Source: Candidatus Micrarchaeota archaeon | GTDB taxonomy: Archaea; Micrarchaeota; Micrarchaeia; Anstonellales; Bilamarchaeaceae | Reading direction: 5' to 3' | DNA: 47,372 nt | Assembly (NCBI GenBank): GCA_043827025.1 | Contig: JBDRPL010000029.1 | Location: forward strand, 1-47,372 | In this document: positions 11,144-30,769 of the stretch, one piece after another | Layout: the number at the start of each line of letters is the position of its first letter | How positions within the stretch are numbered: position 1 is the stretch's first letter | Position numbers and translations under genes: made by a program | The notes under the pieces: model-generated | What the model was told of the DNA's origin: nothing | Databases searched by the model: none | The model's input: the letters and a program-made list of their open reading frames with translations, nothing else

Positions 11144-11160
11144 GGATCATGGGATTAAAC

Positions 11161-11806: not shown

Positions 11807-13633
11807 ATGGCTCAGGAAAAAAATAAATGCACAATATGTTCGACTTCCAGAAATGCAATTGCTGAAATAACAAAGAAAAATGAGAATTTCAAATGGGCAT
11901 ATTTAGGGGAAGATGTTTCAAAAGCGATAGCAATTGAAAACGCACTTGGTAAATCTGGAGAAAAAATAGATACCGGAGGCATGCTTCAGGAGATTGCAAG
12001 ATCGCTTAAATGGAAATATGTTGAGTACATAGGAAAGATGAGCCTAAAGAAAAAATCGCTCATCTGGTGGGGAAGCGCGCTTTCGGAAAAGAGCCCCTAT
12101 TCCTCAAAGACATTCCTTCATTCGTGCTACCTCATGGTTTATTTGGAAATCGTCAAAAAATACAGCGATATGCCACTGGTTTTCTTTGTTGAGGCAGGAT
12201 CACTGCGAAAAGCAATGAAAGAAAATGCACCTTCTGGAATAGATGTGGAATGCAAGGAAAGCAGTGTTGGGCATATTAAAGAAAGCGTTGGCAATATGTT
12301 GAATTGCATATTGAGGCGGGGATACTTCCTGACAAACAACATCTACAAAACAATCCTTGCAAAATGGATATACCAGATGCAGAACAAGGTTGAGAAAAAT
12401 GTGCCTTATGAGGTCCTGCATACATTTGCTGCGAAAAGGTCATTCGACGCCCAGAATAAAAAATTCAAAGAAAACTTTTACGGCGACCTTCCAGAATATG
12501 CAAAGAGAACTAGCAAAAAATACATAATCTATCCTTCCATATGGGGCGCGTCATATAAGACTGCCATGGATGTATTGAAACTTCAGGAAAGAATACTCAT
12601 CCATCACGCATTTCTCTCAATATTCGACATATTCAATGTTTTCTTCAGCACAATGAAAAGGCCAAAATCAGATTGCCCCAAGTTCGAAGGAATGGACATT
12701 GCTGCAATAATAGATGAAGATGTAAGAAAAGACTATGGAGGCATAAGGATGCCCTCTGACATTCTGGTATATCACGCAATAAAAAACATGAAGAAAAACA
12801 GGATTCTGATTTCCAACCTCATTGAACCCTATGAAAACCATACAAATGAAAAAGTAGCAAGGATAGCTGTGAGGGAATTCTATCCTGATGCAAGGATAAC
12901 TGGATACCAACATTCTACATTCTCAAGCATGCACCTTGAATACTTGTTTTCAAAAGAGGAGTTTGCAGTTCTTCCTTTCCCTGATGAGATAATAACAAGC
13001 GGAGATCAGGACAAGAGAACATTTACTGAATGGGGCTATCCAATTGACAGGCTTGTGAGGGGGGGTGCAATAAGATACGCGGATGTGCTTCAACTGGAGA
13101 CAAACAATAGAGCACTGAACCCGGACAAGCCAACTGTGCTTGTTACAACTTCGATAAACAAGCCAGATGCACTTGAACTGGTATGGAAGACAATAAAAGC
13201 ATTTGAAAATGGGGAAAAATATCGCATCATAATAAAGTGCCACCCTTATATGCCATTCAAGAAGATAATAAAAGAGCTTGGCATTCCAGTTCCTGGACAC
13301 TTTGAAATCAGTGATACTCCTATACCAAAACTTCTTGACGAAACAGATGTCCTGGTCTACACCAGCTCGACAACCTGCCTGGAAGCAATTGCAAAGGGAG
13401 TTCCCATAATCTACGTTGGCTCAGACCTGATGATTGAACTGAATCCACTTGACTTCGACCCCGATGTAGCATTCTGCGCAAAGAAACCAGAGGACATCGT
13501 AAAGGGAGTGGAATATTGGGTGGGAATGAAAAAAGAGGAACTGGATAAAAGAAGAAAGGATTGGAAAGGGACTGTTCAGAAAATGTTCTGCAAGGTTGAT
13601 GACAAGACCTATTCCTTATTTTTCAGGCAATGA
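11807..13633 (+). CDS. Large surface-carbohydrate biosynthesis protein with a GT-B-like C-terminus (resembles the LIC13510-type family); candidate ulosonate transferase
   Basis: YEN...EK, GYQHS, GAIRY, IKCHP and SSTTCLEAIAKG motifs. Confidence 0.6.
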   Translation: MAQEKNKCTICSTSRNAIAEITKKNENFKWAYLGEDVSKAIAIENALGKSGEKIDTGGMLQEIARSLKWKYVEYIGKMSLKKKSLIWWGSALSEKSPYSSKTFLHSCYLMVYLEIVKKYSDMPLVFFVEAGSLRKAMKENAPSGIDVECKESSVGHIKESVGNMLNCILRRGYFLTNNIYKTILAKWIYQMQNKVEKNVPYEVLHTFAAKRSFDAQNKKFKENFYGDLPEYAKRTSKKYIIYPSIWGASYKTAMDVLKLQERILIHHAFLSIFDIFNVFFSTMKRPKSDCPKFEGMDIAAIIDEDVRKDYGGIRMPSDILVYHAIKNMKKNRILISNLIEPYENHTNEKVARIAVREFYPDARITGYQHSTFSSMHLEYLFSKEEFAVLPFPDEIITSGDQDKRTFTEWGYPIDRLVRGGAIRYADVLQLETNNRALNPDKPTVLVTTSINKPDALELVWKTIKAFENGEKYRIIIKCHPYMPFKKIIKELGIPVPGHFEISDTPIPKLLDETDVLVYTSSTTCLEAIAKGVPIIYVGSDLMIELNPLDFDPDVAFCAKKPEDIVKGVEYWVGMKKEELDKRRKDWKGTVQKMFCKVDDKTYSLFFRQ

Positions 13634-15507
13634 ATTTTTTTGTAAACCAGCTTGGCAGCCCTTTCTGCACTCTTTCCATCATCAAGATGTGTCCCGTATC
13701 TTTTCAGGAACTCGTGATTGTTTAGATCAACATCATAGCCAGGGACGGAACCAGTATCCAAAAAAGAGTTGATTGCCTTTGACATTTCTTCAACAGTCTT
13801 GAAGCAATATGCTCTTTTCTTTAAAAGAATTTCTGCATCCTTGTCAAGTCTGCAATGTTGCGTAGTTGTGAATACGGGCTTGTTCGTAGTGATTGCCTGC
13901 AATAATGTAGTCGAAGGAAAATCAATTACAAAAACACCTGCATATGGCGCCAGATCATCAAATGTAGATTCTGCTTGTATGAATCTTAAGTCGCTGAATT
14001 CCTTTTCTTCTGCATATGCCACTATAGGGCTTGACCTATAGCCGATGTTAGGATGCAATTTAACAACAACAGGCATTTTCCTTTGTTTTCCAATGGTTTC
14101 CAGAACATGTTTTTGCGATCTCCAGAAAAGATTGTCTGACCACATTGGAGGAAATGAAACATAAAGGTGGTTATGGTAAAGGTTAGTTGAAGCATAGAGC
14201 AGGAAGCTTTTTTTCTTCTCTTTACCTTGTAACTTTTTTGAGGATAATTTGTCAAGGTTGCTTGAGCCTATTGGAACCAGCTCTGTGCCTGACTGCTTTG
14301 CCTGCTTTCCATATTTTTCAACAACACCTTCCCCAAAAACAAGATGAATTCCTGATTTCACAAAATCAGAATAGGGGATCATTGGCTGGTCAAGATAACC
14401 ATAATTCCCATGCTGCCAACTGAATACAGGAATGCCGATATCCAAGGCAGCTTTTGCAAATGATTTTGCAATTGGATTCGAAAAACCAGATGTGAGCATA
14501 GCTCCTATGCCATTCCTCTTTGAAAAAGAATTTGAAAGCAGGTAAGAATTCATGCATGCCTTTGCAACCCTATTAAACAAGAAAAGCAATCTTGGCCCTG
14601 CAATTGGCAGAACGTCGATGTTTTCGAAAATGAACAGACTGCAGAACTCCGAATTAGACCTAAGGCAGTCCATGATCTTTTTCGGATCAGGAGGTACATC
14701 TGCAGTTCCAATTGCCATTTCATTGACTGCCCAGTATTCAACATCATCTGAAAGCTCCAAAATCGGAAAGATTCCTGAATCCTTGAAATTGCGCATGCAG
14801 GAACCCCAATTGTATTTGCCTCCAAAAAAAATGACAGGGAATTTGTCCATTGACTTTTCGCTCAGGTCGAGGCGCAACGTTTCTGCCTGACTATGTGATT
14901 TCAGCAATGGCTTCACCTTGTTGCGTATGAAACACATTGCCCTTTTGAAAAAGCCAATTCCTGTAGGCGTCTTGATTGAACCAAGAATGACTGGCTTGAA
15001 GCTCCATTGGTCTAATGAAAGAAGAATCGAATAGATAGATTCACTGTTGTCAAAAAGAACCTGGAAAGCTTCCTGGGAAAAACCGATTAATCGGGATGGC
15101 TGACCATAGAATAGAATTTCATCCGGATTCTCAGCACAGATTATCTTGGAAAGCTGAAATGTCCTAAGAAGTATAGAATCATAGAGAAGTTTTAGGTGGA
15201 AAAAACCGAATGCAGCGGGAGTTATGCCCTTCTTCTTGAATTCAGGAGATTGTTCGTGAATCAAATCATCGATTATGCTGCAGATCCTTTCTACTTTTTT
15301 ATAATTCTCCATTCCAAACTGATAAAGCTCTTCAGCACCATAATAATCTTCAGGGATCTTGTATTTGAAATTGTTCTTGTCCAGCTCGTGCATTGCAAAA
15401 GGAGACAGAGCAATCAGAGTTGTCAAGCTGGCATTGTGTTTTTTCAGAAAGTCAATAACCTGTGCTTCGTTCTCTAGGAACACCAAAACCTTTTTTGCAG
15501 CATCCAT
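13609..15507 (-). CDS. Large GT-B-like polysaccharide biosynthesis protein; candidate transferase
   Basis: WQHG, VFGEG, VKLHP and STTLLQA...KPV motifs; 632-aa ORF. Confidence 0.6.
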   Translation of the reverse strand: MDAAKKVLVFLENEAQVIDFLKKHNASLTTLIALSPFAMHELDKNNFKYKIPEDYYGAEELYQFGMENYKKVERICSIIDDLIHEQSPEFKKKGITPAAFGFFHLKLLYDSILLRTFQLSKIICAENPDEILFYGQPSRLIGFSQEAFQVLFDNSESIYSILLSLDQWSFKPVILGSIKTPTGIGFFKRAMCFIRNKVKPLLKSHSQAETLRLDLSEKSMDKFPVIFFGGKYNWGSCMRNFKDSGIFPILELSDDVEYWAVNEMAIGTADVPPDPKKIMDCLRSNSEFCSLFIFENIDVLPIAGPRLLFLFNRVAKACMNSYLLSNSFSKRNGIGAMLTSGFSNPIAKSFAKAALDIGIPVFSWQHGNYGYLDQPMIPYSDFVKSGIHLVFGEGVVEKYGKQAKQSGTELVPIGSSNLDKLSSKKLQGKEKKKSFLLYASTNLYHNHLYVSFPPMWSDNLFWRSQKHVLETIGKQRKMPVVVKLHPNIGYRSSPIVAYAEEKEFSDLRFIQAESTFDDLAPYAGVFVIDFPSTTLLQAITTNKPVFTTTQHCRLDKDAEILLKKRAYCFKTVEEMSKAINSFLDTGSVPGYDVDLNNHEFLKRYGTHLDDGKSAERAAKLVYKKIHCLKNKE

Positions 15508-15533
15508 GTGATTTGAGAATGGGTAGACAAAAC

Positions 15534-15541
15534 TTTTAAAA
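15534..15541. promoter_or_regulatory. Palindromic TATA box TTTTAAAA in a 67-bp divergent spacer
   Basis: About 27 bp from the minus-strand ATG (15507) and about 34 bp from the plus-strand ATG (15575). Confidence 0.55.
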
Positions 15542-15574
15542 CAGTTATCAACAACAGATGGGTTGGTGTGATTT

Positions 15575-15724
15575 ATGGCAAAGCGAGTTCATGTTGTTCC
15601 GATCATTCCAAATGGAGATGGCACCTTCACAATAAGCAAGGCAGACCTTGGAAAGGAACAAATTGTTTTAGTTGCCATAACTGATGCCACCTACTATGTG
15701 CACATAAAAGAGATATCGACATGA
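15575..15724 (+). CDS. Small hypothetical protein, 49 aa (MAKRVHVVPIIPNGDGTFTISKADLGKEQIVLVAITDATYYVHIKEIST)
   Basis: Translated by hand (below the ORF-track cutoff). GGTGTGA SD-like site upstream, TATA upstream, and it fills an otherwise empty gap. Confidence 0.6.
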   Translation: MAKRVHVVPIIPNGDGTFTISKADLGKEQIVLVAITDATYYVHIKEIST

Positions 15725-15793
15725 GACGAAATCCGTCTGAGAAGTAGGTATCTTTAAAAGGACTTGGAGGCACTTATTCCTTCAGGTCTTTCT

Positions 15794-16954
15794 ATGGTAG
15801 ATGCATTTAGATTCAAGTTAAGAACTGACGCCAGATTCGGCGTAGGAATGGCTGAGAAGCTTGGCGAATTGTTGAAAGAAAAGGGCTACTCAAACCCAAT
15901 AATTTTGATTGATACTGGAGTAATCAACCTTCCTTCGATAAAGAAAATTGTAGAGGAAACAGGCAAAACATGCAAAGTCCTAAAGGTATTCGAGAACAAG
16001 GTTCCAGAGCCCACATATGGATCATTGGATGAGGCAAGAACGCACTTTGAAGGTTTGAAACCAGATTGTGTTGTTGGAATAGGAGGCGGAAGCACCCTTG
16101 ACCTTGCAAAAGGAATAGCAACACTTATGACCAATCCTGGGAAGGGTCTCTTGTACAGAGGATTCAATCTTGTAAAAACACTTCCTTTGCCAGTGATTGC
16201 AATACCAACAACCGCAGGAACAGGAAGCGAAGCAACATTCAATGCAGTTTTCACAGAGAAATCAGAGAAAAAGAAAATGGGCATCAATACAGAATATAAT
16301 TTCCCAGTACTCGCAATACTTGACCCTGTTCTGATAACGAGCTGTCCAAAGAAAGTGGCTGTTGGATCAGGAATGGATGCAATAGTTCACACATTGGAAA
16401 GCTTCGTAGCAAATGCATCTACGCCAACATCAAGGATGTATGCAAAGCAAGCATTTGCACTTTTGTTCAATAATCTTGAAAAGGCAGTGAAAGACCCTAA
16501 AGATATTGAAGCGCAATCAAAGGTTTTGCTTGGAAGCCATTATGCAGGCATCTCACTCGTTAATTCAGGTGCAGGGCCTGCAGGAGCAATGTCTTACCCA
16601 TTGGGAACTTATTTCGATGTTCCACATGGGATAGCTGGCGCGATGTTCATCCCTCATGTGGTAAAGATGAATGTGGATAAGGGATGCAATACCTACAACC
16701 AATTATACGATCTTATTGATGGCGCAGACCATGGGCTTAGTGAGGAAGAAAAGGCAAATGAGTTCTCAAAAGAATTCACAAGGTTCTGCAATGCACTGGA
16801 TGTGCCAAAGAAGTTGAATGTCTTCGGAGTGAAGAAAAGCGATAAAGAGCTACTTCAGCGCGAGGCTGCTGTATTGAAAGGAGCATTCGGCATGAACCCA
16901 GTGCCATTCGGGGAAAAAGAGGTTCAGGAGCTCTTGGACATGTTGATTGATTAG
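15794..16954 (+). CDS. Iron-containing (group III) alcohol dehydrogenase, KdnB-like
   Basis: GGGSTLDLAK, LMTNPG..LYRG.NLV, PTTAGTGSEAT, GMDAIVH.LES and PHG motifs; adjacent to a KdnA-like gene. Confidence 0.85.
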   Translation: MVDAFRFKLRTDARFGVGMAEKLGELLKEKGYSNPIILIDTGVINLPSIKKIVEETGKTCKVLKVFENKVPEPTYGSLDEARTHFEGLKPDCVVGIGGGSTLDLAKGIATLMTNPGKGLLYRGFNLVKTLPLPVIAIPTTAGTGSEATFNAVFTEKSEKKKMGINTEYNFPVLAILDPVLITSCPKKVAVGSGMDAIVHTLESFVANASTPTSRMYAKQAFALLFNNLEKAVKDPKDIEAQSKVLLGSHYAGISLVNSGAGPAGAMSYPLGTYFDVPHGIAGAMFIPHVVKMNVDKGCNTYNQLYDLIDGADHGLSEEEKANEFSKEFTRFCNALDVPKKLNVFGVKKSDKELLQREAAVLKGAFGMNPVPFGEKEVQELLDMLID

Positions 16955-16986
16955 AGGAAATTGAAGAAAAACAAGGGAGTGATGCT

Positions 16987-18162
16987 ATGCCAGGATTCGA
17001 ATTGATTGGGAAGGAAGAAAAAGAAGCTGTTGACGAGATATTCGAAAAAAGCAATGGAGTGCTTTACAGATATGCACTCAATGATAGGAGAAATAACATT
17101 TTCAGAGTTGATGAGTTCGAAAAACAACTCCAGCACAAAGTAGGGGCAAAACACTGCCTTTGCGTATGCAATGGAACTGCAGCACTCAAACTTTGCCTTA
17201 TAGGCGCTGGAGTAAAACCTGGAGATGAAGTCATAACGCAAAGCTTCACATTCATTGCTACTGTGGAAGCAATACTTGAACTTGGAGCAAAGCCAATCAT
17301 CACAGAAGTTGATAAATCTCTTAACATGGATCCTGAGGACCTGAGGAAAAAAATCACAAAGAAGACAAAGGCAATAATACCTGTTCATATGGCAGGAGTT
17401 GCTGCAAAGATGGATGAGATAATGGCGATCGCAAAGGAACACAATCTTCCTGTTGTCGAAGATAGTGCACAGGCACTTGGCGCCACATACAAAGGAAAGA
17501 TGCTCGGAACCATAGGCATCGCAGGCATTTACAGCCTTGACATTGGCAAAGTCATAACAACAGGAGAGGGTGGAGTTGTAGTAACAAATGATGAAAAAAT
17601 ATTTCTCAAGGCGAGGGAATACTCGGACCATGGTCATGAGCAGAACCCAAAGGTGCCAAGAGGCGAAGACACCAGAACAATCTGGGGCTTTAATTACAAG
17701 ATAACCGAGCTCCAGGGAGCAATAGGACAGGCACAGCTTAAGAAATTGGATTATGTCCTTGAACAGCAGAGAAAAAACAAAAGGATGATCAAAGAGGGAA
17801 TAAAAAGCGCACCTGGAATCGAATTCAGGGAAATCCCGAATGGAGAGGGAGATGCAGGAGATACATTGATTTTTTTCGTAAAAGACAGAGAAACCGCATC
17901 AAAATTTGCAAAGAAGCTCTCTGAAAGAAAAATGGGCACTAAAAATCTGCCTGATGCAATAAACTGGCATTATGCAGGCACATGGACCCAAATATTCCAT
18001 GATTACCCTGAATACAAGGGAAAGAACCTTGAAGAAGTGTGGGAGCAGTCGACCAGCTATCTTAGGAGAGCAATTGCACTTCCTGTAATGGTGAAGATGG
18101 CTGATGAAAGGATAAATGAGATAATATCAGCAGTCATGGAGATTGCAAACGAGTTGAAATAA
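16987..18162 (+). CDS. DegT/DnrJ-family PLP aminotransferase, KdnA-like
   Basis: MPGFELIG.EEK N-terminus, EDSAQ, SLDIGKVITTGEGG, SDHGH, FREIP..EGD and NWHY. These match my recollection of Shewanella KdnA. Confidence 0.85.
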   Translation: MPGFELIGKEEKEAVDEIFEKSNGVLYRYALNDRRNNIFRVDEFEKQLQHKVGAKHCLCVCNGTAALKLCLIGAGVKPGDEVITQSFTFIATVEAILELGAKPIITEVDKSLNMDPEDLRKKITKKTKAIIPVHMAGVAAKMDEIMAIAKEHNLPVVEDSAQALGATYKGKMLGTIGIAGIYSLDIGKVITTGEGGVVVTNDEKIFLKAREYSDHGHEQNPKVPRGEDTRTIWGFNYKITELQGAIGQAQLKKLDYVLEQQRKNKRMIKEGIKSAPGIEFREIPNGEGDAGDTLIFFVKDRETASKFAKKLSERKMGTKNLPDAINWHYAGTWTQIFHDYPEYKGKNLEEVWEQSTSYLRRAIALPVMVKMADERINEIISAVMEIANELK

Positions 18163-18163
18163 C

Positions 18164-18817
18164 ATGGCAGATTATGACAGCACCTCGAGGGAAAAACCAT
18201 ACGTACTTGCAATAATTCCTGCAAGAGGAGGAAGCAAGGGCATCCCTAGGAAGAACATGAAGATGATTGCCGGGAAGCCATTGATAGCCTGGAGCATAGG
18301 ATCAGCAAAGGAATCCAAACTATTGGACAAGTTTGTGGTTTCAACAGAAGACAAGGAAATTGCTGATGTTTCAAGAAAGTATGGCGCAGAGGTTGTTGAC
18401 AGGCCAAAAGAACTGGCAAGCGACACTGCAATGACACTGCCAGTATTGCAGCAAGTTCTCCAGAAGATAGATGCAGATATTGTTGTGCTTCTCCAACCGA
18501 CCTCTCCGATGAGGAGCAAAGGCCTCATAGACAGATGCATAAAACAATTCCTTGAAACCAAAGTAGAATCACTGGCAACGGGATTCATCTGCAAATTCAT
18601 GGAATACGGCAGTTACAGCAAACGAAGGCAGGAATTGAAGGGATTCTTCTATGATGATGGAAATGTATATGTCATAGATGCAAACCTGATACGAAATGGA
18701 AAAATGGTCGGTGAAAAGAAAGGGCATTGTTTCACAACAAGAGAAGAAAATACAGAAATAGATGACGAATTCGATTTCTGGCTTGTTGAAAAGGTGCTTC
18801 AGGAGCGAATGAAATAG
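18164..18817 (+). CDS. neuA: CMP-nonulosonate synthetase
   Basis: IPARGGSKGIPRKN, LQPTSPMR, RRQ and EIDDEFD motifs. Confidence 0.92.
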   Translation: MADYDSTSREKPYVLAIIPARGGSKGIPRKNMKMIAGKPLIAWSIGSAKESKLLDKFVVSTEDKEIADVSRKYGAEVVDRPKELASDTAMTLPVLQQVLQKIDADIVVLLQPTSPMRSKGLIDRCIKQFLETKVESLATGFICKFMEYGSYSKRRQELKGFFYDDGNVYVIDANLIRNGKMVGEKKGHCFTTREENTEIDDEFDFWLVEKVLQERMK

Positions 18818-18827
18818 GAGGATTAAT

Positions 18828-19880
18828 ATGCATAAAGAAACTATACTGGTTGGAAAAAAGAAGGTCGGGCCAGGACAGCCATGCTTCATAATCGCAGAAG
18901 CTGGAGTGAATCATAATGGCGATATGAAATTGGCAAAAGAGCTTGCACTTGTAGCAAAGCAGGCAGGCGCTGACGTTGTAAAATTCCAGACATTTAATCC
19001 TGACAAACTTGTCACGAAAAAGGCAGGCAAGGCAGAATACCAAAAAGAGACGACAGATGCAGCTGAAAGCCAGCTTGCAATGCTTAAAAAACTGGCACTT
19101 GGTGAAAAAGATTTCGAGGAATTGAAGAGGTATTGCGACAAGATAGGCATCATGTTCCTTTCGACCCCTTTTGACAGCGAAAGCGTCACGATAGTCAACA
19201 AGCTTTGCCCTATAATCAAAATTTCGTCTACTGACACCAACAACTATCCATTCATAGAACAGATAGCAAGGCTAGGGAAACCGATAATGCTGTCAACAGG
19301 AATGTCAACAATGGACGAGGTAAAAAAGGCTGTTGAAGCAATAAGGAAAACAGGGAATGACAAGATAATTTTATTGCAATGCATAAGTTCATATCCAACT
19401 CCGCTTGAATACGCAAATGTGGCAGCAATGCTCGAGCTAAGGAAAGCAGATGTTGAGATTGTCGGGTATTCGGACCATACTGTCGGTAATTTCGCAATAT
19501 TCACAGCAGTTGCCCTTGGGGCCAATGTTGTTGAGAAACACTTTACCTTGGACAAGAATATGGAAGGACCTGACCATAAGGCATCTGCAGACCCGAAAGA
19601 GCTTGAAGAACTGATAAAAGGGATAAGAAGCATAGAAAAGGCCCTTGGAAGCGGAATTAAGGCACCTGTAAAATGCGAAATGGAGAATATACCTATTGTC
19701 AGGAAAAGGCTTGTTGCTGCAGTTGACATAAAAAACGGGCATGTGATTACGCGCGAAATGGTCGAGATAAAAAGATCGAAAAACGGTGCAGAGCCAGGAC
19801 AACTAAACGAAGTTATAGGAAAGAAGGCAACAAGAGATATAAGCATAGATGAAGGAATAGAAAAAGAGGATGTGAAATGA
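18828..19880 (+). CDS. neuB: Nonulosonate synthase (NeuB/LegI family) with C-terminal SAF domain
   Basis: AEAGVNHNGD, KFQT, STPFD, SDHT and EKHFTLD...GPDH motifs. Confidence 0.93.
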   Translation: MHKETILVGKKKVGPGQPCFIIAEAGVNHNGDMKLAKELALVAKQAGADVVKFQTFNPDKLVTKKAGKAEYQKETTDAAESQLAMLKKLALGEKDFEELKRYCDKIGIMFLSTPFDSESVTIVNKLCPIIKISSTDTNNYPFIEQIARLGKPIMLSTGMSTMDEVKKAVEAIRKTGNDKIILLQCISSYPTPLEYANVAAMLELRKADVEIVGYSDHTVGNFAIFTAVALGANVVEKHFTLDKNMEGPDHKASADPKELEELIKGIRSIEKALGSGIKAPVKCEMENIPIVRKRLVAAVDIKNGHVITREMVEIKRSKNGAEPGQLNEVIGKKATRDISIDEGIEKEDVK

Positions 19881-20524
19881 AAAAACTCCTGATAATAGGC
19901 GCTGGAGACCAGCCCAAAATAATCATTGATGCCATAGAATCCAACCCAAACTACAAGGACATCAGCATAAAGGGACTCATGGATGTTGAGGGCCGAAAAG
20001 AAAATGTTGGAAAAGAGATACTTGGGCATCGAATAGTAGGAACGCTTGACAAACTTGCAGAATACTTATGCGACTTCTATGTGATAGCTGTTGGCGATCC
20101 TGCAAAAAGAAAGGAGATCGATGCAAAGGTGGCCGAAACAGGAAAGAAAACTGAGGCACTTACGATAATCCACAAAAGCGCAATAGTCTCGAAGCACGTG
20201 AAGATAGGGAGTGGAAGTATGATCTCTGCTGGCGCAATAATACTTCCGAATGCGATATTAGGAAGGCACTGCATAATCAACACAAGTGCAACGATCGACC
20301 ATGACTGCGAGCTTGGAGATTACGTTAACATATCTCCAGGTGCGAAGATATCTGGAAATGTAAAGATAGGTGAGTGTGCAACTATAGGAACAGGCGCAAC
20401 AATAATCGACGGCGTGACAATTGGAAAGAATGCGATCATAGGCGCAGGCGCATCCGTGATATCTGATATACCTGCAGATTCAACTGCAGTCGGTGTTCCG
20501 GCAAAGGTAATCAAAAAGGGTTGA
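19877..20524 (+). CDS. neuD: NeuD/PglD/LegH-family hexapeptide sugar acetyltransferase
   Basis: IIGAG N-terminus, INTSATIDHDC, left-handed beta-helix repeats, and GVPAK. Confidence 0.88.
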   Translation: MKKLLIIGAGDQPKIIIDAIESNPNYKDISIKGLMDVEGRKENVGKEILGHRIVGTLDKLAEYLCDFYVIAVGDPAKRKEIDAKVAETGKKTEALTIIHKSAIVSKHVKIGSGSMISAGAIILPNAILGRHCIINTSATIDHDCELGDYVNISPGAKISGNVKIGECATIGTGATIIDGVTIGKNAIIGAGASVISDIPADSTAVGVPAKVIKKG

Positions 20525-20533
20525 AGCTCAAAG

Positions 20534-21511
20534 ATGAAACACATAATTTATATGAGTCATAACATCTTCGGTTTCGAAACGCTTCAGCATCTTGCAAGGC
20601 TGATCAAGGAGAAAAAATTAGATGCTAAGATAGAACTTATAGTCTGCAGAAAGACAAAGGAAAGATTGTGCGATCAGACACTTGATTTCATTGAATTTGC
20701 AAAAAAAGAAAAGATAGGATTGGTGCAGACAGACAACATAAAAGAAGACCAAGTGGTCATGGAAAAGATAGAACAAATTAAACCCGATTTCCTTTTTGTT
20801 TTTGGATGGTCGCAGCTGATACCTGAAAATATATTAAAAGGAGTCAAAGAGCTTGCAATAGGAAGCCACCCTACACTTCTTCCGAAATACAGAGGAAATG
20901 CAGCAATACCCTGGCAAATACTACTTGGGGAAAAAGAGAGCGGCGCCACCTTATTCGAGATACGGTCTGATGTTGGAGTTGATGCTGGAGGGATACTGGC
21001 GCAGAAAAGATATCTCCTAGATGCCAGAGAGACCTCAACCACGCTCTACAAGAAGTTCACTGAAAATGTGAAGAAAATACTTGACGAAAGCCTGAAATGT
21101 ATAATCAATGGGAAGATAAAACCAAAACCACAGCAGAGCCCCCCCAGTTATCTTGGAAAGAGAAGGCCTTCGGACAGCAGGATAAACTGGGAGCTTTCAA
21201 GCGAAGAAGTGGACAGGCTCATAAGGGCTCAGTCCTTTCCATACCCAGTTGCCTATTCCTATTTGAAAAAAGGAGAAACCTATGAAAAAATTGGGATTCT
21301 TGACTCGGAACTAGGAAAAGAACAAGTAATCGGAGTTCCTGGAAGCATATTGATAGGCAAGGGCAGGGCAATTGTGGCCTGCGGAAAGGGAACAATAGAG
21401 ATAAGAAATATAAGAGTTGAAAACAATAGCATGGATGCTTCAAAATATCTGAATGGTATTGGAAGATTCGACATTGAGATGAATGATGTCCTATTTGAGG
21501 CGGTTAGATAA
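20534..21511 (+). CDS. Sugar N-formyltransferase (Fmt/ArnA-like)
   Basis: GWSQLI, HPTLLPKYRG.A, VDAG and INW...IRA..PYP motifs; located inside the neu operon. Confidence 0.87.
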   Translation: MKHIIYMSHNIFGFETLQHLARLIKEKKLDAKIELIVCRKTKERLCDQTLDFIEFAKKEKIGLVQTDNIKEDQVVMEKIEQIKPDFLFVFGWSQLIPENILKGVKELAIGSHPTLLPKYRGNAAIPWQILLGEKESGATLFEIRSDVGVDAGGILAQKRYLLDARETSTTLYKKFTENVKKILDESLKCIINGKIKPKPQQSPPSYLGKRRPSDSRINWELSSEEVDRLIRAQSFPYPVAYSYLKKGETYEKIGILDSELGKEQVIGVPGSILIGKGRAIVACGKGTIEIRNIRVENNSMDASKYLNGIGRFDIEMNDVLFEAVR

Positions 21512-22674
21512 TGACAAAGAAAATCGCAGTTATCACAGGAACAAGGGCGGAATACGGCATACTTGAACCAATAGTAAAAAAGATAGTGGCGGACAAGGAG
21601 CTTGAACTCCAGCTCTATGTCACAGGCATGCACCTTTCCAAGGAATATGGAGACACTGTGAAGCAGATAGAATACAAAATAGCTGAAAAAATAGATATGA
21701 AGATCAAGGAAAGAAATGAAGATATTGACATGGCGATCTCGGTAAGCGAAGGCGTTAAGGGATTTGCAAATGCATTCAAGAAAAGAAAGCCGGATCTTGT
21801 TATTGTCCTTGGGGACAGGATTGAAGCGTTTGCTGCAGCAGTCTCTGCCCACCTTCTCAACATACCCATAGCACACATACATGGAGGAGATTTGACATTT
21901 TCAATATTCGATGAAGGGATGAGACACGCAATTACAAAGCTTGCCCATATTCATTTCGCAGCAACTGAAAAAAGCAAGAAAAGAATATTGCAGATGGGTG
22001 AAGAACCTTGGAGAGTCTTCAATGTGGGGGCGCCAGGCATTGATGCGATACTCGAATCCAAAATAACATCAAAACAGGAGATATGTAAAAAGCTCAGGCT
22101 TGGCCCAAACAAAAAAATCGCATTGGTACTCTATCATCCGGTGACAACTGAGTGGGAAACTGCAGGAACAGAGATGGTCTCGATCCTCAGGGCAATGGAA
22201 AACTTCGATGGCCAAGTAATTATCATAGGGAGCAATGCGGATGCAGGAAGTTACAAGATAAAAGATGAGATGAACAGGCTGAAGAACAAAAAAAATTGCC
22301 ATCTATTCAACAGCCTTGGGCACGCAGACTTCCTTTCATTGATGAAGAACTGCGATGTGATGGTCGGAAATTCAAGCAGCGGCATAATCGAGGCGCCAAG
22401 CCTTGGAGTTTCTGTGATAAACGTAGGGCCAAGGCAAGAAGGAAGGGAAAGGGCAAAGAATGTAATAGATGTGCCTTGTGATGAGGTTCATATTCGAAAG
22501 GCAGTTGAAAAGGCAATTAATGATTCGAAGTTCATTGAAACAGCAAAGAAATGCGAATCTCCTTATGGGAATGGCCATGCTTCTGAAAAGATAATGAAGA
22601 CAATAAAGGGCATAGACCTAGCGAATAAAAAACTAATACAGAAAAGATTCATAGAGATCGGAGTTGATGACTGA
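21511..22674 (+). CDS. neuC: Hydrolysing NDP-N-acetylhexosamine 2-epimerase (NeuC/LegG family)
   Basis: TGTRAEYG, TGMHL, LGDR.E, HIHGGD, RHAITKLAH, GNSSSG..E and RQ.GR motifs. Confidence 0.93.
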   Translation: MTKKIAVITGTRAEYGILEPIVKKIVADKELELQLYVTGMHLSKEYGDTVKQIEYKIAEKIDMKIKERNEDIDMAISVSEGVKGFANAFKKRKPDLVIVLGDRIEAFAAAVSAHLLNIPIAHIHGGDLTFSIFDEGMRHAITKLAHIHFAATEKSKKRILQMGEEPWRVFNVGAPGIDAILESKITSKQEICKKLRLGPNKKIALVLYHPVTTEWETAGTEMVSILRAMENFDGQVIIIGSNADAGSYKIKDEMNRLKNKKNCHLFNSLGHADFLSLMKNCDVMVGNSSSGIIEAPSLGVSVINVGPRQEGRERAKNVIDVPCDEVHIRKAVEKAINDSKFIETAKKCESPYGNGHASEKIMKTIKGIDLANKKLIQKRFIEIGVDD

Positions 22675-23324
22675 TGCATGTTTTGGTGATAGGTGCACAT
22701 CCTGATGATGAAGTATATGGTTGCGGCGGAACGATTGCGAGAATGGCGAGCGAAGGGCATGAGATATACGTACTTATCGTGACAGAAGGTTCCAGTGCCC
22801 AATACAAGGACAAGAAAATGATAGATGTGAAACGACAAGAAGCAGAAAAGGTGAAGGAACTGCTGAAGATAAAGAAGTACATCTTCGGCGAGTTTGCTGA
22901 CATGAAGCTGGATTCTGTGCCTCATCTTGAACTCAACAAATTCATCGAGGCTGCAATAGACGAAATAAAGCCTGAATACATATTCACACATTACAAGCAT
23001 GATTTGAATAAAGATCATCAAAAAATATTCGAATCAACAATGGTTGCTGCAAGGCCTGGCAGGAAATTCATAAAAAGAATATACAGCTATGAAGTTCCTT
23101 CCACAACAGAACTGGGAAGTGTTGCTTTCCAGCCGAATAAGTTCTTCAATATAACCAGCTACATAGATAAAAAGAAAAAAGCTGTGGAGATCTACAAAAG
23201 CGAGCTTCGCGAGTATCCTCATGCAAGGAATGCAGAGGCAGTTGAAGCACTTGCGAAGTACCGAGGATATTCATCGAATCTGAAGTATGCAGAAGCATTT
23301 ATGCTAATAAGGGCCATTGAATAA
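22674..23324 (+). CDS. PIG-L/LmbE-family N-deacetylase
   Basis: AHPDDE..G.GGT and D...DH motifs; C-terminal AEAF. Confidence 0.9.
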   Translation: MHVLVIGAHPDDEVYGCGGTIARMASEGHEIYVLIVTEGSSAQYKDKKMIDVKRQEAEKVKELLKIKKYIFGEFADMKLDSVPHLELNKFIEAAIDEIKPEYIFTHYKHDLNKDHQKIFESTMVAARPGRKFIKRIYSYEVPSTTELGSVAFQPNKFFNITSYIDKKKKAVEIYKSELREYPHARNAEAVEALAKYRGYSSNLKYAEAFMLIRAIE

Positions 23325-23366
23325 AAGTACAAAAAAGGACAATAATAGCTAAAAACAAGTGATGTT

Positions 23367-24497
23367 ATGAAAATACCGCTTTACAAGCCATATGTTGACG
23401 AGAAAGAAAAGGAATGTGTGAACCGAGTAATTGACCGGGGCTATAATTGGACTAATGGACCTGAAAACGAAGAATTGGAGCAAATGGTCTGCAAACTCAC
23501 TGGCTCCAAATATGCCTTGAGCATGAACAATGGAACGTGCGCATTGCATGCAATGCTCTTTGCCCATGAGATAGGGCCAGGAGACGAGATCATAGTCCCA
23601 TCATTCACATTCATAGCAACTGCCAACTCACCACTATTTGTGGGTGCAAAGCCAGTTTTCGCAGACATAGAAAAAGAAACTTATGCGCTTGATCCAGAAG
23701 ATGTAAGGGGGAAAATCACAAAGAAGACAAAGGCGATAATGCCCATTCACTATGGCGGTTGTCCTGCAATCAAAACAAAAGAATTGAAGGAAATCGCAGA
23801 TGAGAAAGGATTATTGTTCATAGAGGATGCGGCTGAATCGCTTGGCGCTAAAATTGACGGCAAGATGGTTGGAACCTTTGGGGATTCTGCAATGTACAGC
23901 CTTTGCGGAAACAAGATAATCACAAGCGGAGAAGGGGGAATCGTAGTAACGAACGAAGAGAAGACATACCAAAAACTCAAGTTGATAAGATCTCATGGAA
24001 GGAATGAAACAGAGAATTATTTCGAAAGCGCTGCGAGGATGGATTATATACAATTAGGATACAATTTTAGGATGCCGACCATAGTGGCAGCACTTGCAAT
24101 TGCACAGCTGAAGAAACTTGATAAGATAATAGAAATGCGAAGAAAGATTGCGAAGCAGTTTGATTCATTCCTTTCTGCATATGGTAACAAGGTGAGAGTG
24201 CCATACAACAAAGATAGTGGATTGTTCAATGTTTACCAGATGTACTCCATAGTATTGGAAAGCGAAGCGCTGAGAGACAGGCTGAAAAATCACCTAACCA
24301 AGAACCAGGTGGCAACCAAGATATACTTCGACCCAATACACAAGACGCATTTCTATTCGAAAGTATTAGGATACAAGGACGTCCTGCATACAACAGAAGA
24401 TATTGCAAGAAGAGAGTTGACGATTCCGATTTATCCTGGCATGACAGACGAAGAAGTGAAATATGTTTGCGAAAAGATGAAAGGAAGTATCGAATAG
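23367..24497 (+). CDS. DegT/DnrJ/EryC1/StrS sugar aminotransferase
   Basis: NGTCALH, FTFIAT, EDAAESLG, SLCGNKIITSGEGG and GYNFRM motifs. Confidence 0.92.
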   Translation: MKIPLYKPYVDEKEKECVNRVIDRGYNWTNGPENEELEQMVCKLTGSKYALSMNNGTCALHAMLFAHEIGPGDEIIVPSFTFIATANSPLFVGAKPVFADIEKETYALDPEDVRGKITKKTKAIMPIHYGGCPAIKTKELKEIADEKGLLFIEDAAESLGAKIDGKMVGTFGDSAMYSLCGNKIITSGEGGIVVTNEEKTYQKLKLIRSHGRNETENYFESAARMDYIQLGYNFRMPTIVAALAIAQLKKLDKIIEMRRKIAKQFDSFLSAYGNKVRVPYNKDSGLFNVYQMYSIVLESEALRDRLKNHLTKNQVATKIYFDPIHKTHFYSKVLGYKDVLHTTEDIARRELTIPIYPGMTDEEVKYVCEKMKGSIE

Positions 24498-24498
24498 G

Positions 24499-25857
24499 TT
24501 AGGCTATATTCCTATATTTTGGATTGTTATAGTCCTTCAGCACTTCCATGTCCAGAGCAAGAACTTCATTGACGCCGTATTCTATGCCATGCTTGAGCTC
24601 CATGTCAAACACAGATTTGAACCTTGAAAATGCGATTCTGTAGTTTCTCTTATCTGCCTTGTCCTCATTAACAACAATGTCGGCATCAGGCACAATCTTC
24701 TTGATGATCTCTGCGATCTGTATGATCTTATAATTATTAATCTCAGACCCTACGTTGAAAATGCCTCCTTTGATCTTCTCTATTGGAAGTTCAAGGCATC
24801 TTATGTAAGCATCTGCAGCATCTTCAAGATGCAGGAAAGGCCTCCATTGTTCGCCTCCGAACACAGTTATTTTTTTATCAACAACTGCCTTTGCACTCAG
24901 CAGGTTGATCACCAAATCAAAACGCATCCTTGGAGAAACACCAAAAAGAGTAGGCATCCTCATTATAGTTGGCGCAAAGTTGCCATCTTCCATATCAAGA
25001 AGCACCTGTTCTGAATTTATCTTCATCTTGGCATATATGGAAACCGGATTCAGCTTAGCCTCCTCTGCAAGAAGCTCATCTCCACTGCTTGCACCATAAT
25101 TACTACAAGTAGATGAAAATATGAAACGATTTATCTGGAAATACTTACAGACATCTGCAAGAAGCTTGGTGGAAAAATAGTTGAGTTCTATCGCCTGCCT
25201 TGGGCTGACAGTGCACGCAGGATCTCCTACAAGGGATGCAAGATGAATTACTGCATCAACGCCTTTTATAGCATCAACAACATCAGTCATGTTCCTCATG
25301 TCTCCATTGACGAATGTAAAGCCTTCTTTACCATAGAGGTCTTTTATCCCATGGTCCCCGTACATCACATTGTCAAGAACCTTCACCCTATAGCCTTTTG
25401 AAAGAAGCTTTCTAGCCAAAACAGCCCCAAAATATCCTGCACCGCCAACAACAAGAACCTGTTTTACATGTTCTGTTTTGTTTGGATCTCTTGAAAATGA
25501 AACTGACTTATCATACAAAAAGACAATACGTAAAATCTTTCCTTCATCATCAACAACAGGTATTTTGAGAGAACCTCCAACAGGTACGCTCTTCCTTATA
25601 GATTCATCAAAGACTTCATTTCCTTGCCTGACAAACAAGGGATTTTTATTCACGATACTCGAAACGGCATCATTTATGGAGATGCCTTGTAGCAATGCTC
25701 TGCGTATGTCGCCATCAGTAACTACTCCTTTCAGAGATTTCTTGGCATCGACTATAAATGCGATTCCAATAAGGTTCTTGTCAATGGCCTTCATAGCATC
25801 TTTTATGGAACTGCCTTCATCCACAACTGAGGAGTTGAAATCAAAAACATTAGACAT
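24499..25857 (-). CDS. Fusion: CBS-pair domain + NAD-dependent epimerase/dehydratase (SDR)
   Basis: N-terminal GVVTDGDIRRALL...IPVVD CBS pair. C-terminal GGAGYFG, YAKMK and SPRMRFDL motifs. Confidence 0.87.
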   Translation of the reverse strand: MSNVFDFNSSVVDEGSSIKDAMKAIDKNLIGIAFIVDAKKSLKGVVTDGDIRRALLQGISINDAVSSIVNKNPLFVRQGNEVFDESIRKSVPVGGSLKIPVVDDEGKILRIVFLYDKSVSFSRDPNKTEHVKQVLVVGGAGYFGAVLARKLLSKGYRVKVLDNVMYGDHGIKDLYGKEGFTFVNGDMRNMTDVVDAIKGVDAVIHLASLVGDPACTVSPRQAIELNYFSTKLLADVCKYFQINRFIFSSTCSNYGASSGDELLAEEAKLNPVSIYAKMKINSEQVLLDMEDGNFAPTIMRMPTLFGVSPRMRFDLVINLLSAKAVVDKKITVFGGEQWRPFLHLEDAADAYIRCLELPIEKIKGGIFNVGSEINNYKIIQIAEIIKKIVPDADIVVNEDKADKRNYRIAFSRFKSVFDMELKHGIEYGVNEVLALDMEVLKDYNNPKYRNIA

Positions 25858-25924
25858 GAGAAAATATTGTAGGAGTCCATTATTAAAAGCTATCTAGGGG
25901 TATATAAAACAGGAAAGTGAGCCC

Positions 25925-27799
25925 ATGGAAGGCATGAAAAAGATAGCCGTATTCGAAAGCATAGGGCCTGAAAATAAAGGCAAGGCACTTAGCCACCTGA
26001 AGGAAGGATTTGCAGTGCTTTTCCGGGAGATTAGCCCAACAATATCTATTGACCCTAATATCAAAAATGCCCTGGAAAAAGGCAGTATGAAAAGAATTGA
26101 GAGCCTGCTTTTTGATTATCCCCTTTATGTAAGGGCCTGGGAACAGGCAGACAAAATAATAGATGAGCTATTCACTAAAAGACATGGCAAAAGCAATCTG
26201 ATAAAAAACACCAACAACCTATTTAGATATAAAAACATATCTGCAATGTACAAGAAGAAAATGCTTGTTGAGCTTTGCAATAACTGCGAAACAATAATGA
26301 TGGTAACCCAGGTTATGGAAAAAGAAAATCCTGAGAAGATTATCCTATATCCTTCAGAGGACTGGCTTCTTGGCGAGGCTAAAGAATTGCTTGGCAGGAA
26401 AGTCGAGTTGGTTCTGCAGAAAAAGAAATTGTCGCACCGAATAAAGCAGACTTTCCAAAAGATGGGATTCCTTCTATATCCCTGGTACATGCTGCTGAAA
26501 AAAGTGTCCATCTTTCCGAAAAAGAAGGAAAAATTCCAGGTGGCAATAAGCATAGACCAGACTGCCAATCTCTTTTCAAGAAGAAACTATGGCGAAGCGA
26601 CCTTGATAGATGAGAAAGAACTTCCAAAAGAAAAAGTGCTATTCATAGACGAAAGCAGAAAGTACATAAAGGAAAAATATGCCGAGATGGGATTTTGTTG
26701 CACATCCCTTAGATGCGAACGAGAGACTCTTAGCCTTGGCGCTTTGAAGGACATCCTGTTCAGGTTCTTTCCATGCTGGATACGCTCCATATTCTGCATA
26801 GGTGAAGACTGGATGACTGTTAGGATGGCATCAAAGGCAATGAGCGATTATATACTTTGGAGGCTTCTTCTTGGCAGATATAAGATAAATAATTACGTGC
26901 GAAGAATGGTTGTTGATCCAATATCAAAAATAGCTATGCTGAGAGAAAGCAAAACAAAGACATGGCTGTATTACCCTGATGCATCAACAGTGGACCATAC
27001 TGAATGGAATGGGGAAAACTCGCCTGACCCAGATTTTAATTTCATTGATTATGATCGTGTAGTAGTATATGGAAATCGGACAAAAAGATTCTTCCAAAGC
27101 TACAGACATAACAAGGTAGGCACATACTTCAAGAACGGAATATGGTATTCACAAATAGCAAAGGAGATAGAAACGGGAAAGATCGCCACCAGTATAGGTA
27201 AGCAAATCAAGGCAAAAACCCCAAGCAAGAATGCAATATTCCTAGGCATATTCGACACGACGTTCTCGGAAAGAACCCCACTTCATCCAAAAGATGGGGA
27301 AAAATTCGGAAAGGACATGCTTAATCTTCTTGAGGAAAACAAAGACTATTTTATGATATTCAAGGTGAAATATCCCTGGGCAGAGCTGACCGACGAGATA
27401 AGGTTAATTTATGAAAAGCTGAGGAACCATGAAAGGTGCCTTCTCTTTCCAACAAAAGACGGAGACCTCGGCTCTTCAGCTGAAGTCATAGCCAAATCTG
27501 ATTTTGTCATAGGTGCTGTGTATACTTCTCCTGTAGTGGAGGCTCTTGGAACACACAAAAAAGCGATATACTACGATGTAAGCGGATATGATGCCGGAAA
27601 GAAGGGGATATATTTTTCAGACATACCCGATCTTGTGGCGCACAGCTATGGCGAAATGAAAGAGCTTATGGCGCATTGGATGAAAAAAACGGATGAAAAA
27701 AAGTTCGATGGATTTCTGAATAAATATGTAAAGGGAGAAATGGATGAATACCTTGACCAGAAGGCAATCAACAGATTCAGGAAAATGTTAATGGACTAG
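25925..27799 (+). CDS. Large polysaccharide biosynthesis protein (resembles the PFTS-motif family), GT-B-like C-terminus
   Basis: IFDT, IFKVKY and AVYTSPVVEALG...AIYYD motifs; 624 aa. Confidence 0.55.
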   Translation: MEGMKKIAVFESIGPENKGKALSHLKEGFAVLFREISPTISIDPNIKNALEKGSMKRIESLLFDYPLYVRAWEQADKIIDELFTKRHGKSNLIKNTNNLFRYKNISAMYKKKMLVELCNNCETIMMVTQVMEKENPEKIILYPSEDWLLGEAKELLGRKVELVLQKKKLSHRIKQTFQKMGFLLYPWYMLLKKVSIFPKKKEKFQVAISIDQTANLFSRRNYGEATLIDEKELPKEKVLFIDESRKYIKEKYAEMGFCCTSLRCERETLSLGALKDILFRFFPCWIRSIFCIGEDWMTVRMASKAMSDYILWRLLLGRYKINNYVRRMVVDPISKIAMLRESKTKTWLYYPDASTVDHTEWNGENSPDPDFNFIDYDRVVVYGNRTKRFFQSYRHNKVGTYFKNGIWYSQIAKEIETGKIATSIGKQIKAKTPSKNAIFLGIFDTTFSERTPLHPKDGEKFGKDMLNLLEENKDYFMIFKVKYPWAELTDEIRLIYEKLRNHERCLLFPTKDGDLGSSAEVIAKSDFVIGAVYTSPVVEALGTHKKAIYYDVSGYDAGKKGIYFSDIPDLVAHSYGEMKELMAHWMKKTDEKKFDGFLNKYVKGEMDEYLDQKAINRFRKMLMD

Positions 27800-27803
27800 A
27801 TGC

Positions 27804-28934
27804 CTATTTCTGATCCCAGAGGTTATCCTTGACCCAGTCGCCATTCCTGTCCTTTCTCCATACCCGTGGATCTCTGAATGTGTCTGCAATTTTGTCAAAA
27901 TCCTCTTCACTCATGCCAACATATTTCAACCAGCGCTGAAGGTCTCTTGGTTTGACATGATCGTATTTTCGGACCATTTCGATTCCTTTTTCTCGGCTCA
28001 TAAGGCCTGCTCTGATATCCTTGGATACATGGTCTGTGGCCCGCCCATAGCCAAACTTTACATATTTGAGATAATCATGCGCCCCATTTTCATGCATATC
28101 ATCAAGATTCGACATCATTCTATAGGTTCTGTCAAAAGGTTCTGCAGAAATTTCAAACCCGTATTCTTTTCTCATGAGCTCGGTTTGCTTATTCGCTTCC
28201 CAGTCAACATAATTCGAAAGGTAAACCCCTCTAACACCAACTCTGGCGAGCTCCTCATCCGTAGGATATTTTGCCCAAAGGAGATCCTTTTCTGTCAGGC
28301 CTTCCTTTCCGACCATGTCATTCCAGTCAAACCCTCTTTGTGCGTGTTCCAATCTGAACTTGGCAGTCATCTCGATAAAATCATTGTACCCAAACATTCC
28401 CCCAAGGTCAGCATATCCATGCTCTCCCCAGATTATCAATGGAATGTTATGTTTGACTGCCATCTGTACAGGATAAGTGAAAATGCCACAGTGGTTATGC
28501 CAGTTCATATCACCCATTATCTCGAAGCCTACTCTGTTGAGTTTTATCAGCATCTGTTCACTTGGCCTGAAAACAAGATGATCTGCATCAAACCTGTTTC
28601 TCATATTATCCAGATTTCTCTGACCAACATCAAGATAATTATTTCCATGGTAAGTTACCAAAAGAGGTTTTAGGCCGAGAATTTTTGTTACGTAATGTGT
28701 TTGGAAGTAACTGTCCTTTCCGCCACCAACCGGAATAATGCAGTCATAATTGCTACCGTCCTTTGATCGATACTGCTCCACAAGCTTCTTGAGCATTGCT
28801 CCTCTCTTTGCCCAGTCGATTTTCTTCTTCTGTTCGTGGACCCTGCAACCCGAACAAACCCCGTTCTCATCGAATTCCAACGGCACTGCCGAAGATGATG
28901 GATAAACACACTTAGTGCACCATGTGACGCTCAT
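27804..28934 (-). CDS. N-acetyl sugar amidotransferase (WbuX/PseA/AglX-like)
   Basis: CTKC...CSGC Zn site, YDCIIPVGGGKDS PP-loop, WGE and KFGYGRA motifs; HisH/HisF-like partners nearby. Confidence 0.88.
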   Translation of the reverse strand: MSVTWCTKCVYPSSSAVPLEFDENGVCSGCRVHEQKKKIDWAKRGAMLKKLVEQYRSKDGSNYDCIIPVGGGKDSYFQTHYVTKILGLKPLLVTYHGNNYLDVGQRNLDNMRNRFDADHLVFRPSEQMLIKLNRVGFEIMGDMNWHNHCGIFTYPVQMAVKHNIPLIIWGEHGYADLGGMFGYNDFIEMTAKFRLEHAQRGFDWNDMVGKEGLTEKDLLWAKYPTDEELARVGVRGVYLSNYVDWEANKQTELMRKEYGFEISAEPFDRTYRMMSNLDDMHENGAHDYLKYVKFGYGRATDHVSKDIRAGLMSREKGIEMVRKYDHVKPRDLQRWLKYVGMSEEDFDKIADTFRDPRVWRKDRNGDWVKDNLWDQK

Positions 28935-28973
28935 AAAAATCAAATCAACAAATGTGCAAATGGTTTTTTAATT

Positions 28974-30755: not shown

Positions 30756-30769
30756 AATATGGTGAAAAC

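Follow-up and report, generated by a model that had tools for sequence, protein, structure and literature searches.

The locus described here is a nine-gene operon in a 47,372-nt stretch of DNA from a Candidatus Micrarchaeota archaeon (contig JBDRPL010000029.1). This whole stretch is referred to below as the window, and all coordinates are given on it. Open reading frame (ORF) calls and family searches placed nine consecutive genes at 15794–24497, all on the plus strand, with successive gaps of 32, 1, 10, −4, 9, −1, −1 and 42 nt. Gene order, tight coupling and family assignments were confirmed as given in a preliminary description of the sequence. The first two genes encode a group III (Fe-type) alcohol dehydrogenase (Fe-ADH; 15794–16954, ATG at 15794), a predicted sugar oxidase, and a pyridoxal phosphate (PLP) transaminase of the KdnA family (16987–18162; DegT fold, K188 and D159). 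A NeuA-type cytidine monophosphate (CMP)-nonulosonate synthetase follows (18164–18817), distinct from KdsB and from a clade that travels with the oxidase/transaminase pair. Next come a NeuB/LegI-type nonulosonate synthase (18828–19880; TIGR03569, 429 bits, cut-off 400), a NeuD/PglD-type acetyltransferase (19877–20524; TIGR03570, above cut-off), a sugar N-formyltransferase (20534–21511), a hydrolysing nucleoside diphosphate (NDP)-sugar 2-epimerase, NeuC/LegG (21511–22674; TIGR03568, 458 bits, cut-off 236), a PIG-L family N-deacetylase (22674–23324) and a second DegT enzyme, a predicted NDP-hexose C4 aminotransferase (23367–24497; below the LegC and PseC cut-offs). Rfam gave no match in 13000–28000 of the window, and a promoter/terminator scan returned matches at chance level only.

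The transaminase is clearly kin to KdnA of Shewanella, which with KdnB forms 8-amino-Kdo (Kdo8N; Kdo stands for 3-deoxy-D-manno-octulosonate). Its best solved match in a sequence search was Shewanella KdnA (5k8b, 300 bits; next 175), which was also the top fold match (39% identity) of its AlphaFold model (pLDDT 86). The DegT fold, the PLP Lys/Asp residues and the family motifs are all in place. The start MPGFELIG was confirmed together with SDHGH and NWHY, and the alignment has the latter two in Shewanella KdnA as well. The Shewanella proteins themselves are absent from our trees, where L230 (516 bits to KdnA) and L154 (361 bits to KdnB) serve as stand-ins. The window transaminase falls outside the clade of kdsB-linked KdnA sequences, in line with its 300 bits to 5k8b against 516 for the kdsB-linked L230. 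Its own clade was recovered with 51 rows in FastTree (support 99) and with 22 rows in IQ-TREE (support 93), and its named hosts include Omnitrophota, Pelagibacteraceae and Prochlorococcus. Four alignment columns part the nonulosonate-linked from the kdsB-side transaminases (G187, D228, A324 and A330). G187 adjoins the PLP lysine and is replaced by Val or Ala on the kdsB side, which may give the nonulosonate-linked enzymes a roomier pocket. The plasmid search yielded no close homologue. Among 35 viral loci there was one 45% match (L162, viral contig 1–1140), a member of the nonulosonate-linked clade.

Kinship of the Fe-ADH to KdnB is more distant. Its best solved match is a methanol dehydrogenase (181 bits) and not KdnB, to which the KdnB-type neighbour in L154 scores 361 bits. 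From these bit scores the Fe-ADH would seem to have no relation to KdnB, a reading that was dropped after trees were built with generic outgroups. The Fe-ADH joined the KdnB-type proteins with support 99 in FastTree (50 rows), and again, against 22 other group III enzymes, with SH-aLRT 99 after removal of nine near-duplicates (41 rows); these are quick trees, and the long KdnB branch calls for caution. Both groups have K.G[IM]N and the Tyr268 column in common, and Tyr268 is also found in a kdsB-side group outside this split. The Fe-ADH retains GGGS, D40 (Asp40 presumably being an NAD marker), D195, H199 and H278. At position 264 it has Gly where KdnB-type and most generic group III members have His, which we take to be a metal ligand. 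This His is present in 7/7 KdnB-type rows, 3/120 close homologues and 0/65 module rows. The enzyme is probably best regarded as a KdnB sister group and not as plain KdnB. The KdnA/KdnB-like identification of the pair in the preliminary description is supported by comparison, in that trees, and for the transaminase also the fold, place the enzymes with that family; the transaminase forms a separate clade and the Fe-ADH a sister group.

No setting for Kdo8N was found in the host. The 1.33 Mb genome is 91.6% complete and archaeal by rpoB_arch (915 bits, cut-off 811). At that completeness the KdsA, WaaA and LpxC families were unmatched, and the Kdo synthesis, KdsB and lipid A that Kdo8N requires were not found. 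The window contains every CTP_transf_3 gene (three) and every NeuB gene (two) of the genome; none of the three CTP_transf_3 genes falls in the KdsB clade. The transaminase query found no match in 60 relatives, nor in 400 genomes of other members of the host's phylum, which suggests transfer. NeuB was present in 14 of 150 other genomes of that phylum. Contamination of the assembly was considered: the tetranucleotide correlation of the contig (0.988) is inside the range of the other contigs; that of the operon alone (0.956) is in the lowest quarter of 110 windows. The STT3 family search of the host gave no match, and a 1021-aa frame with WWDYG was found on host contig C35. The glycan destination may be an N-glycan.

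Conservation of the module was examined in 90 loci, comprising the best 80 of 196 metagenome matches, six of 80 genome loci (the close or neuB-linked ones: L001, L002, L004, L005, L006 and L009) and four of 14 regions. Clustered at 90% identity, they form 73 groups. In 63/73 groups an oxidase was in view, being the window-type Fe-ADH in 53, KdnB-type in five and a PhyH-type dioxygenase in five. A NeuB-type gene was found in 51/73, NeuC in 40/73 and the dedicated NeuA (≥50% identity) in 42/73, many misses being due to short contigs. Among the 55 loci of at least 9 kb, the oxidase was present in 55/55 and a NeuB-type gene in 51/55. Module-linked NeuA sequences form one clade outside KdsB (28 rows, support 100), and the NeuB types vary (35–55% identity). 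No KdsA was found in module loci, either among 75 unassigned KdsA-sized ORFs or among the other five of 80. Across many genomes the pair therefore sits with neuA/neuB rather than kdsA/kdsB, and this linkage persists across phyla. Oxidase, transaminase and NeuA together form a subfamily apart from kdsB-linked KdnA, a conserved and apparently undescribed variant in which the logic of Kdo8N formation would be applied to nine-carbon sugars. From these sequence comparisons we consider it very probable that the pair aminates some nonulosonate.

The oxidase position is variable. In L009 (9242–9994), L006 (9252–9995) and L158 (9225–9992), hosts including Pelagibacteraceae, a PhyH-family dioxygenase directly precedes the transaminase in place of the Fe-ADH, a third kind of oxidase in the module. 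Further variants are an Fe-ADH fused to a B12-binding radical SAM domain (L107, 2360–5533), a KdnB-type domain within a protein of 895 aa that resembles radical SAM enzymes in part (L134, 11780–14467) and an Fe-ADH preceded by 460 N-terminal residues of unknown kind (L155, 7458–9986).

The carbon aminated, left between C8 and C9 by the preliminary description, leans to C9 when the partner enzymes of the module are considered. C8 of Kdo is a terminal CH2OH, like C9 of neuraminic acid (Neu) and also of 2-keto-3-deoxynononic acid (Kdn). Legionaminic (Leg) and pseudaminic (Pse) acids are 9-deoxy, since a 4,6-dehydratase acts first. In the operon, aminotransferase (at family level only), acetyltransferase, hydrolysing 2-epimerase, synthase and CMP-synthetase of the Leg type are all present. 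The neu genes are accompanied by the oxidase/transaminase module and by an added pair, the second DegT gene and a short-chain dehydrogenase/reductase (SDR) gene that converges on it (24499–25857, minus strand), beyond the coordinates described earlier; judged by sequence, plain Neu5Ac is a possible output as well. This CBS-SDR fusion, the predicted partner of the second DegT enzyme, scores only 86 bits on LegB (cut-off 475). Its motif is STCSNYG, without the dehydratase Glu (TSE motif) that is needed for dehydration, which sets it apart from LegB/PglF-type 4,6-dehydratases. It is predicted to be a C4 dehydrogenase that keeps the C6 hydroxyl. Orthologues of the second DegT enzyme (50–54% identity) adjoin an SDR in other module loci.

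The same contrast was seen more widely. In the six module loci with above-cut-off LegC and an adjacent SDR, the SDR scored 73–92 bits on LegB, and LegB was found in 0/6; in L104, a seventh module locus with LegC, no SDR is in view. The control was a search for LegC in 201 genomes from a single phylum, which yielded 30 loci; 23 of these had an SDR of at least 150 aa in view, one of the 23 being a module locus. LegB was the best hit in 20 of the 22 loci without the module (419–524 bits, 15 above cut-off); of the other two, one is window-type and one unclear. The dehydratase Glu is present in 21/22 controls. Among the SDR rows of module loci that adjoin an aminotransferase, counted with duplicates, it is present in 2/43, and three further rows are PseB of separate clusters. 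Elsewhere the module operons have a GalE-like SDR, no SDR in view (L093, L131 and L154) or NanE with a 9-phosphatase domain (L129). Three different upstream routes seem to keep the terminal hydroxyl. Because the partner SDRs have no dehydratase Glu, the C9 hydroxyl is likely kept and aminated. On balance we favour amination at C9 of a free nonulosonate, with somewhat better than even confidence.

Every chemical step of the route that follows is predicted from the gene order, families, co-occurrence, motifs and trees that were observed directly. The CBS-SDR would oxidise C4 of NDP-GlcNAc with the C6 hydroxyl kept, and the second DegT enzyme would aminate C4 to yield a 4-amino NDP-HexNAc. NeuD would acetylate this sugar, the hexose C4 amine being its likely target. 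NeuC would then release the sugar from NDP and epimerise C2, and condensation with phosphoenolpyruvate by NeuB would give a 5,7-diamino nonulosonate still bearing the C9 hydroxyl. On the free nine-carbon sugar, the KdnB-related Fe-ADH would oxidise this terminal hydroxyl to an aldehyde, which the KdnA-family transaminase would turn into a 9-amine before CMP activation by the dedicated NeuA. Tailoring of the C5/C7 amines is the likely role of the deacetylase and formyltransferase. The pathway is predicted to end in a CMP-5,7,9-triamino-nonulosonate that would serve a surface glycan.

The two tailoring genes had initially been assigned to acetylation or formylation of the new amine. This was rejected as the default reading. 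Formyltransferase and PIG-L genes are accessory, each occurring in 6/73 groups (a methyltransferase family occurs in 24/73), and the formyltransferase lies outside the conserved module. Precedent is also at other amines. Passages of PMC6137143 describe a predicted formyltransferase with 5-N-formyl-Leg in Halorubrum sp. PV6, and those of the SugarBase preprint a deacetylase and formyltransferase in Ca. Kuenenia, in whose sugar one amine is free and one formylated. Tailoring is more simply placed on C5/C7, because these genes are found with formyl or free-amine Leg sugars for which no third amine is described.

Amination at C8, by way of a ketone formed from the secondary alcohol, was the best-surviving alternative, and we regard it as unlikely. 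The substrate could be a 9-deoxy Pse-type sugar from a second cluster, giving a product like that of Flexibacter (Tenacibaculum) maritimus. The carbon number would be the same as in Kdo8N, and the same contig encodes PseB (488 bits) and PseC (472 bits), each of which scores above its cut-off. The Pse cluster, however, has its own synthase and CMP-transferase, PseB occurs in only 2/73 groups, and amination at C8 would not explain why LegB is consistently missing from module operons. An 8-amino-5,7-diacylamino-9-deoxy nonulosonate is known from the F. maritimus O-polysaccharide (PMC3210612, in the part available), so C8 amination does occur somewhere in nature; in the available passages and supplements of the T. 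maritimum O-antigen paper, whose table covers one strain, no kdnA/kdnB-type annotation appears and no gene is assigned to the 8-amino sugar (PMC9796276). The earlier claim of an undescribed sugar consequently holds for a C9 amine and not for an 8-amino-nonulosonate.

Earlier action of the pair, at C6 of a hexose precursor (ManNAc-type or NDP-HexNAc) that NeuB then condenses, would lead to the same 9-amino end product. A kept C6 hydroxyl fits this order of events equally well, and most DegT enzymes act on hexoses. We nevertheless think it improbable. The co-travelling gene with its own clade is NeuA, and the NeuB types are diverse; the 9-phosphate routes (L129 and green sulfur bacteria) phosphorylate C6 before condensation; and the Shewanella enzymes act on free Kdo, according to a review passage (PMC4402001); passages of PMC5125639 also describe Kdo8N chemistry. 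Just as improbable is amination of another position (C4 or C7) or of some other sugar in that glycan. Many further sugar enzymes are encoded in the cluster, but in most module operons the C5 and C7 nitrogens already come from the NeuC substrate and the DegT/LegC step, and the neuA/neuB linkage has held across phyla. A standard route to Kdo8N, whether working or an idle relic, would account for the homology to KdnA/KdnB and the KdsB-type genes near two groups, yet is very hard to credit given the host gene content above, the lack of KdsA in module loci and the intact, tightly coupled frames.

Several observations weigh against C9 amination by a nonulosonate-dedicated pair. The Fe-ADH scores 181–154 bits to methanol and lactaldehyde dehydrogenases versus 100 bits to KdnB, and it departs from the KdnB ligand set (Asp, His, His, His) by one metal-binding His. 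In 2/73 groups, L002 (above cut-off) and L006, a true KdsB-type gene is found at a distance of no more than 10 kb. PseB is present in the window as well as in 2/73 groups, and L149 and L143 each have a LegB-like SDR gene on the other strand. The function of the CBS-SDR is read from a 181-bit match to 6vo6, which we take to be Cj1427, a GDP-heptose enzyme. The natural 8-amino sugar of F. maritimus also counts here. The loci are related and the LegC controls come from one phylum, so the counts are not independent. Finally, L296, a LegC locus in a genome where no module was found, has the same non-dehydratase SDR, which makes this SDR independent of the module. The product of L296 may be a 7-amino, 9-hydroxy nonulosonate.

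The operon was compared with known systems. Like Shewanella oneidensis KdnB/KdnA (5k8c and 5k8b), it pairs a group III ADH with a KdnA-family transaminase beside a CMP-ulosonate synthetase, with motifs in common and an oxidise-then-aminate logic. It differs in its separate subfamilies, in NeuA instead of KdsB, in its neuB/neuC context, in a host where no lipid A/Kdo genes were found and in the oxidase lacking one metal-binding His. With the CMP-Leg pathway (LegB/C/H/G/I/F) it shares an SDR, aminotransferase, acetyltransferase, hydrolysing 2-epimerase, synthase and CMP-synthetase; the formyltransferase is shared with the Halorubrum and Kuenenia variants, as far as their partly available descriptions go, and the deacetylase with Kuenenia. 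Unlike that pathway, it has an SDR without the dehydratase Glu in place of LegB, and the extra oxidase/transaminase pair. Presumed Cj1427 of Campylobacter jejuni (6vo6) is the closest solved match of the CBS-SDR (181 bits; next 103). In contrast to the CBS-SDR, which has an aminotransferase partner, Cj1427 has a GDP-heptose substrate and no CBS domain. A passage of PMC10680097, with no mention of 6vo6, describes Cj1427 as a C4-dehydrogenase serving 6-hydroxy products. The F. maritimus sugar, which occurs in nature, is likewise a nine-carbon ulosonic acid and also carries three nitrogens; it differs from the predicted product in being 9-deoxy with its amine at C8. Neu5Ac9NAc, Neu5Ac7NAc and Neu5Ac7,9diNAc have the same skeleton as the predicted products; passages of PMC10795189 present them as stable analogues made chemoenzymatically, not natural products. 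The passages available from PMC7371886, PMC8157484 and PMC3438082 contain nothing on a third amine. A Leptospira table lists an annotated kdnB with neuA genes (PMC8510873). Our literature search, which left most subscription carbohydrate journals outside its reach and is weak evidence of absence, found neither a description of this module nor a 9-amino nonulosonate reported from nature.

Green sulfur bacteria carry a related arrangement. A phylum-wide transaminase search gave a match in 103/401 genomes. Of the best 30 loci, 29 form one group (43–46% identity) with the Fe-ADH beside the transaminase. Five larger regions (L261–L263, L265 and L274, from G496, G580, G536, G524 and G556; families scanned for L261) share one gene order, beginning with an LPG-synthase-type membrane protein and an unknown protein and continuing with NeuA-type synthetase, Fe-ADH and transaminase. 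The FMO family is present in 5/5 of these genomes, and so is a short NeuB beside a phosphatase-like gene whose best family, in the three scanned, is KDN-9-phosphatase (below cut-off). NeuC was unmatched in 4/5. The short NeuB and KDN-9-phosphatase-like gene, together with the missing NeuC match, point to Kdn as the putative substrate of the pair in these bacteria. A Kdo-linked role for this subclade was considered and dropped, as the neighbouring gene is of the NeuA type and there is another cytidylyltransferase, separate from it, with a higher score. A 1991 paper reportedly assigned the sugar of the Chlorobium aminoglycosphingolipid to free neuraminic acid, of which 9-amino-Kdn is an isomer with the same mass. 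An aminoglycosphingolipid of Chlorobium limicola is cited in a passage of PMC11762602, and a passage of PMC12132484 gives Kdo as detected in the lipooligosaccharide of Cba. tepidum. The unclassified protein of the operon has 320 aa, and its Atlas neighbours include glycerophosphotransferase-like clusters at 11%.

Genuine Kdo8N loci may also extend beyond Shewanella. KdnA homologues were found in 32/301 Flavobacteriales genomes, with kdsB within 1.5 kb in 9/30 loci, often plus a KdnB-type gene; L003 and L007 likewise have kdsB near the KdnA homologue. All these kdsB-linked homologues fall outside the window-transaminase clade. The Flavobacteriales kdnA-kdsB-kdnB-type clusters (L227–L256) suggest Kdo8N beyond Shewanella. 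In at least 10/21 genomes of one class (L314, L317 and L320–L327) the KdnA homologue has as neighbour an Fe-ADH of a third clade, one not related to KdnB. With kdsB near in L007, this class is a possible case of Kdo8N outside Shewanella with a different oxidase.

The remainder of the window is rich in related genes. The second nonulosonate cluster (33557–39073, minus strand) encodes PseB and PseC above cut-off, a NeuB-type synthase, a GNAT protein, a GT2 protein and an SpsF-type cytidylyltransferase; PseG was unmatched among the scanned ORFs. At 9308–11802 (plus strand), a fusion of a cytidylyltransferase with a HisC-like class I/II aminotransferase is followed by a HAD hydrolase, and an HpcH/HpaI aldolase with two radical SAM genes lies on the opposite strand (8312–9097, minus). 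These genes possibly represent a third ulosonate-type pathway. WbuX amidotransferase and HisH/HisF-like partners, for acetamidino modification, are encoded at 27804–28943 (minus) and 30126–31561 (plus), interleaved with two NHL-repeat genes (28974–30062 and 31575–33494). Three proteins of 600–630 aa (11807–15507 and 25925–27799), weakly like the Leptospira-type surface-carbohydrate families TIGR04326, TIGR04331 and TIGR04417, have homologues that recur in module loci and are candidate nonulosonate transferases.

Taken at its broadest, and only tentatively, an undescribed subfamily may make natural 9-amino nonulosonates in bacteria and archaea. These would be 9-amino-Kdn, 9-amino-Neu5Ac and, via a hydroxyl-keeping LegB substitute, an archaeal 5,7,9-triamino sugar, and the Chlorobi aminolipid would carry 9-amino-Kdn. 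Green sulfur bacteria with the module beside a Kdn-type route provide a cultured test case. If the proposal is true, there would be a class of natural sialic acid relatives whose side-chain amine offsets the negative charge, with the enzymes responsible named. Genes automatically annotated as 'Kdo8N transaminase' would often be mislabelled, and many clusters read as 'legionaminic acid' would make something else. The pair would also offer an enzymatic route to 9-amino sialic acids, which currently come from chemoenzymatic synthesis.

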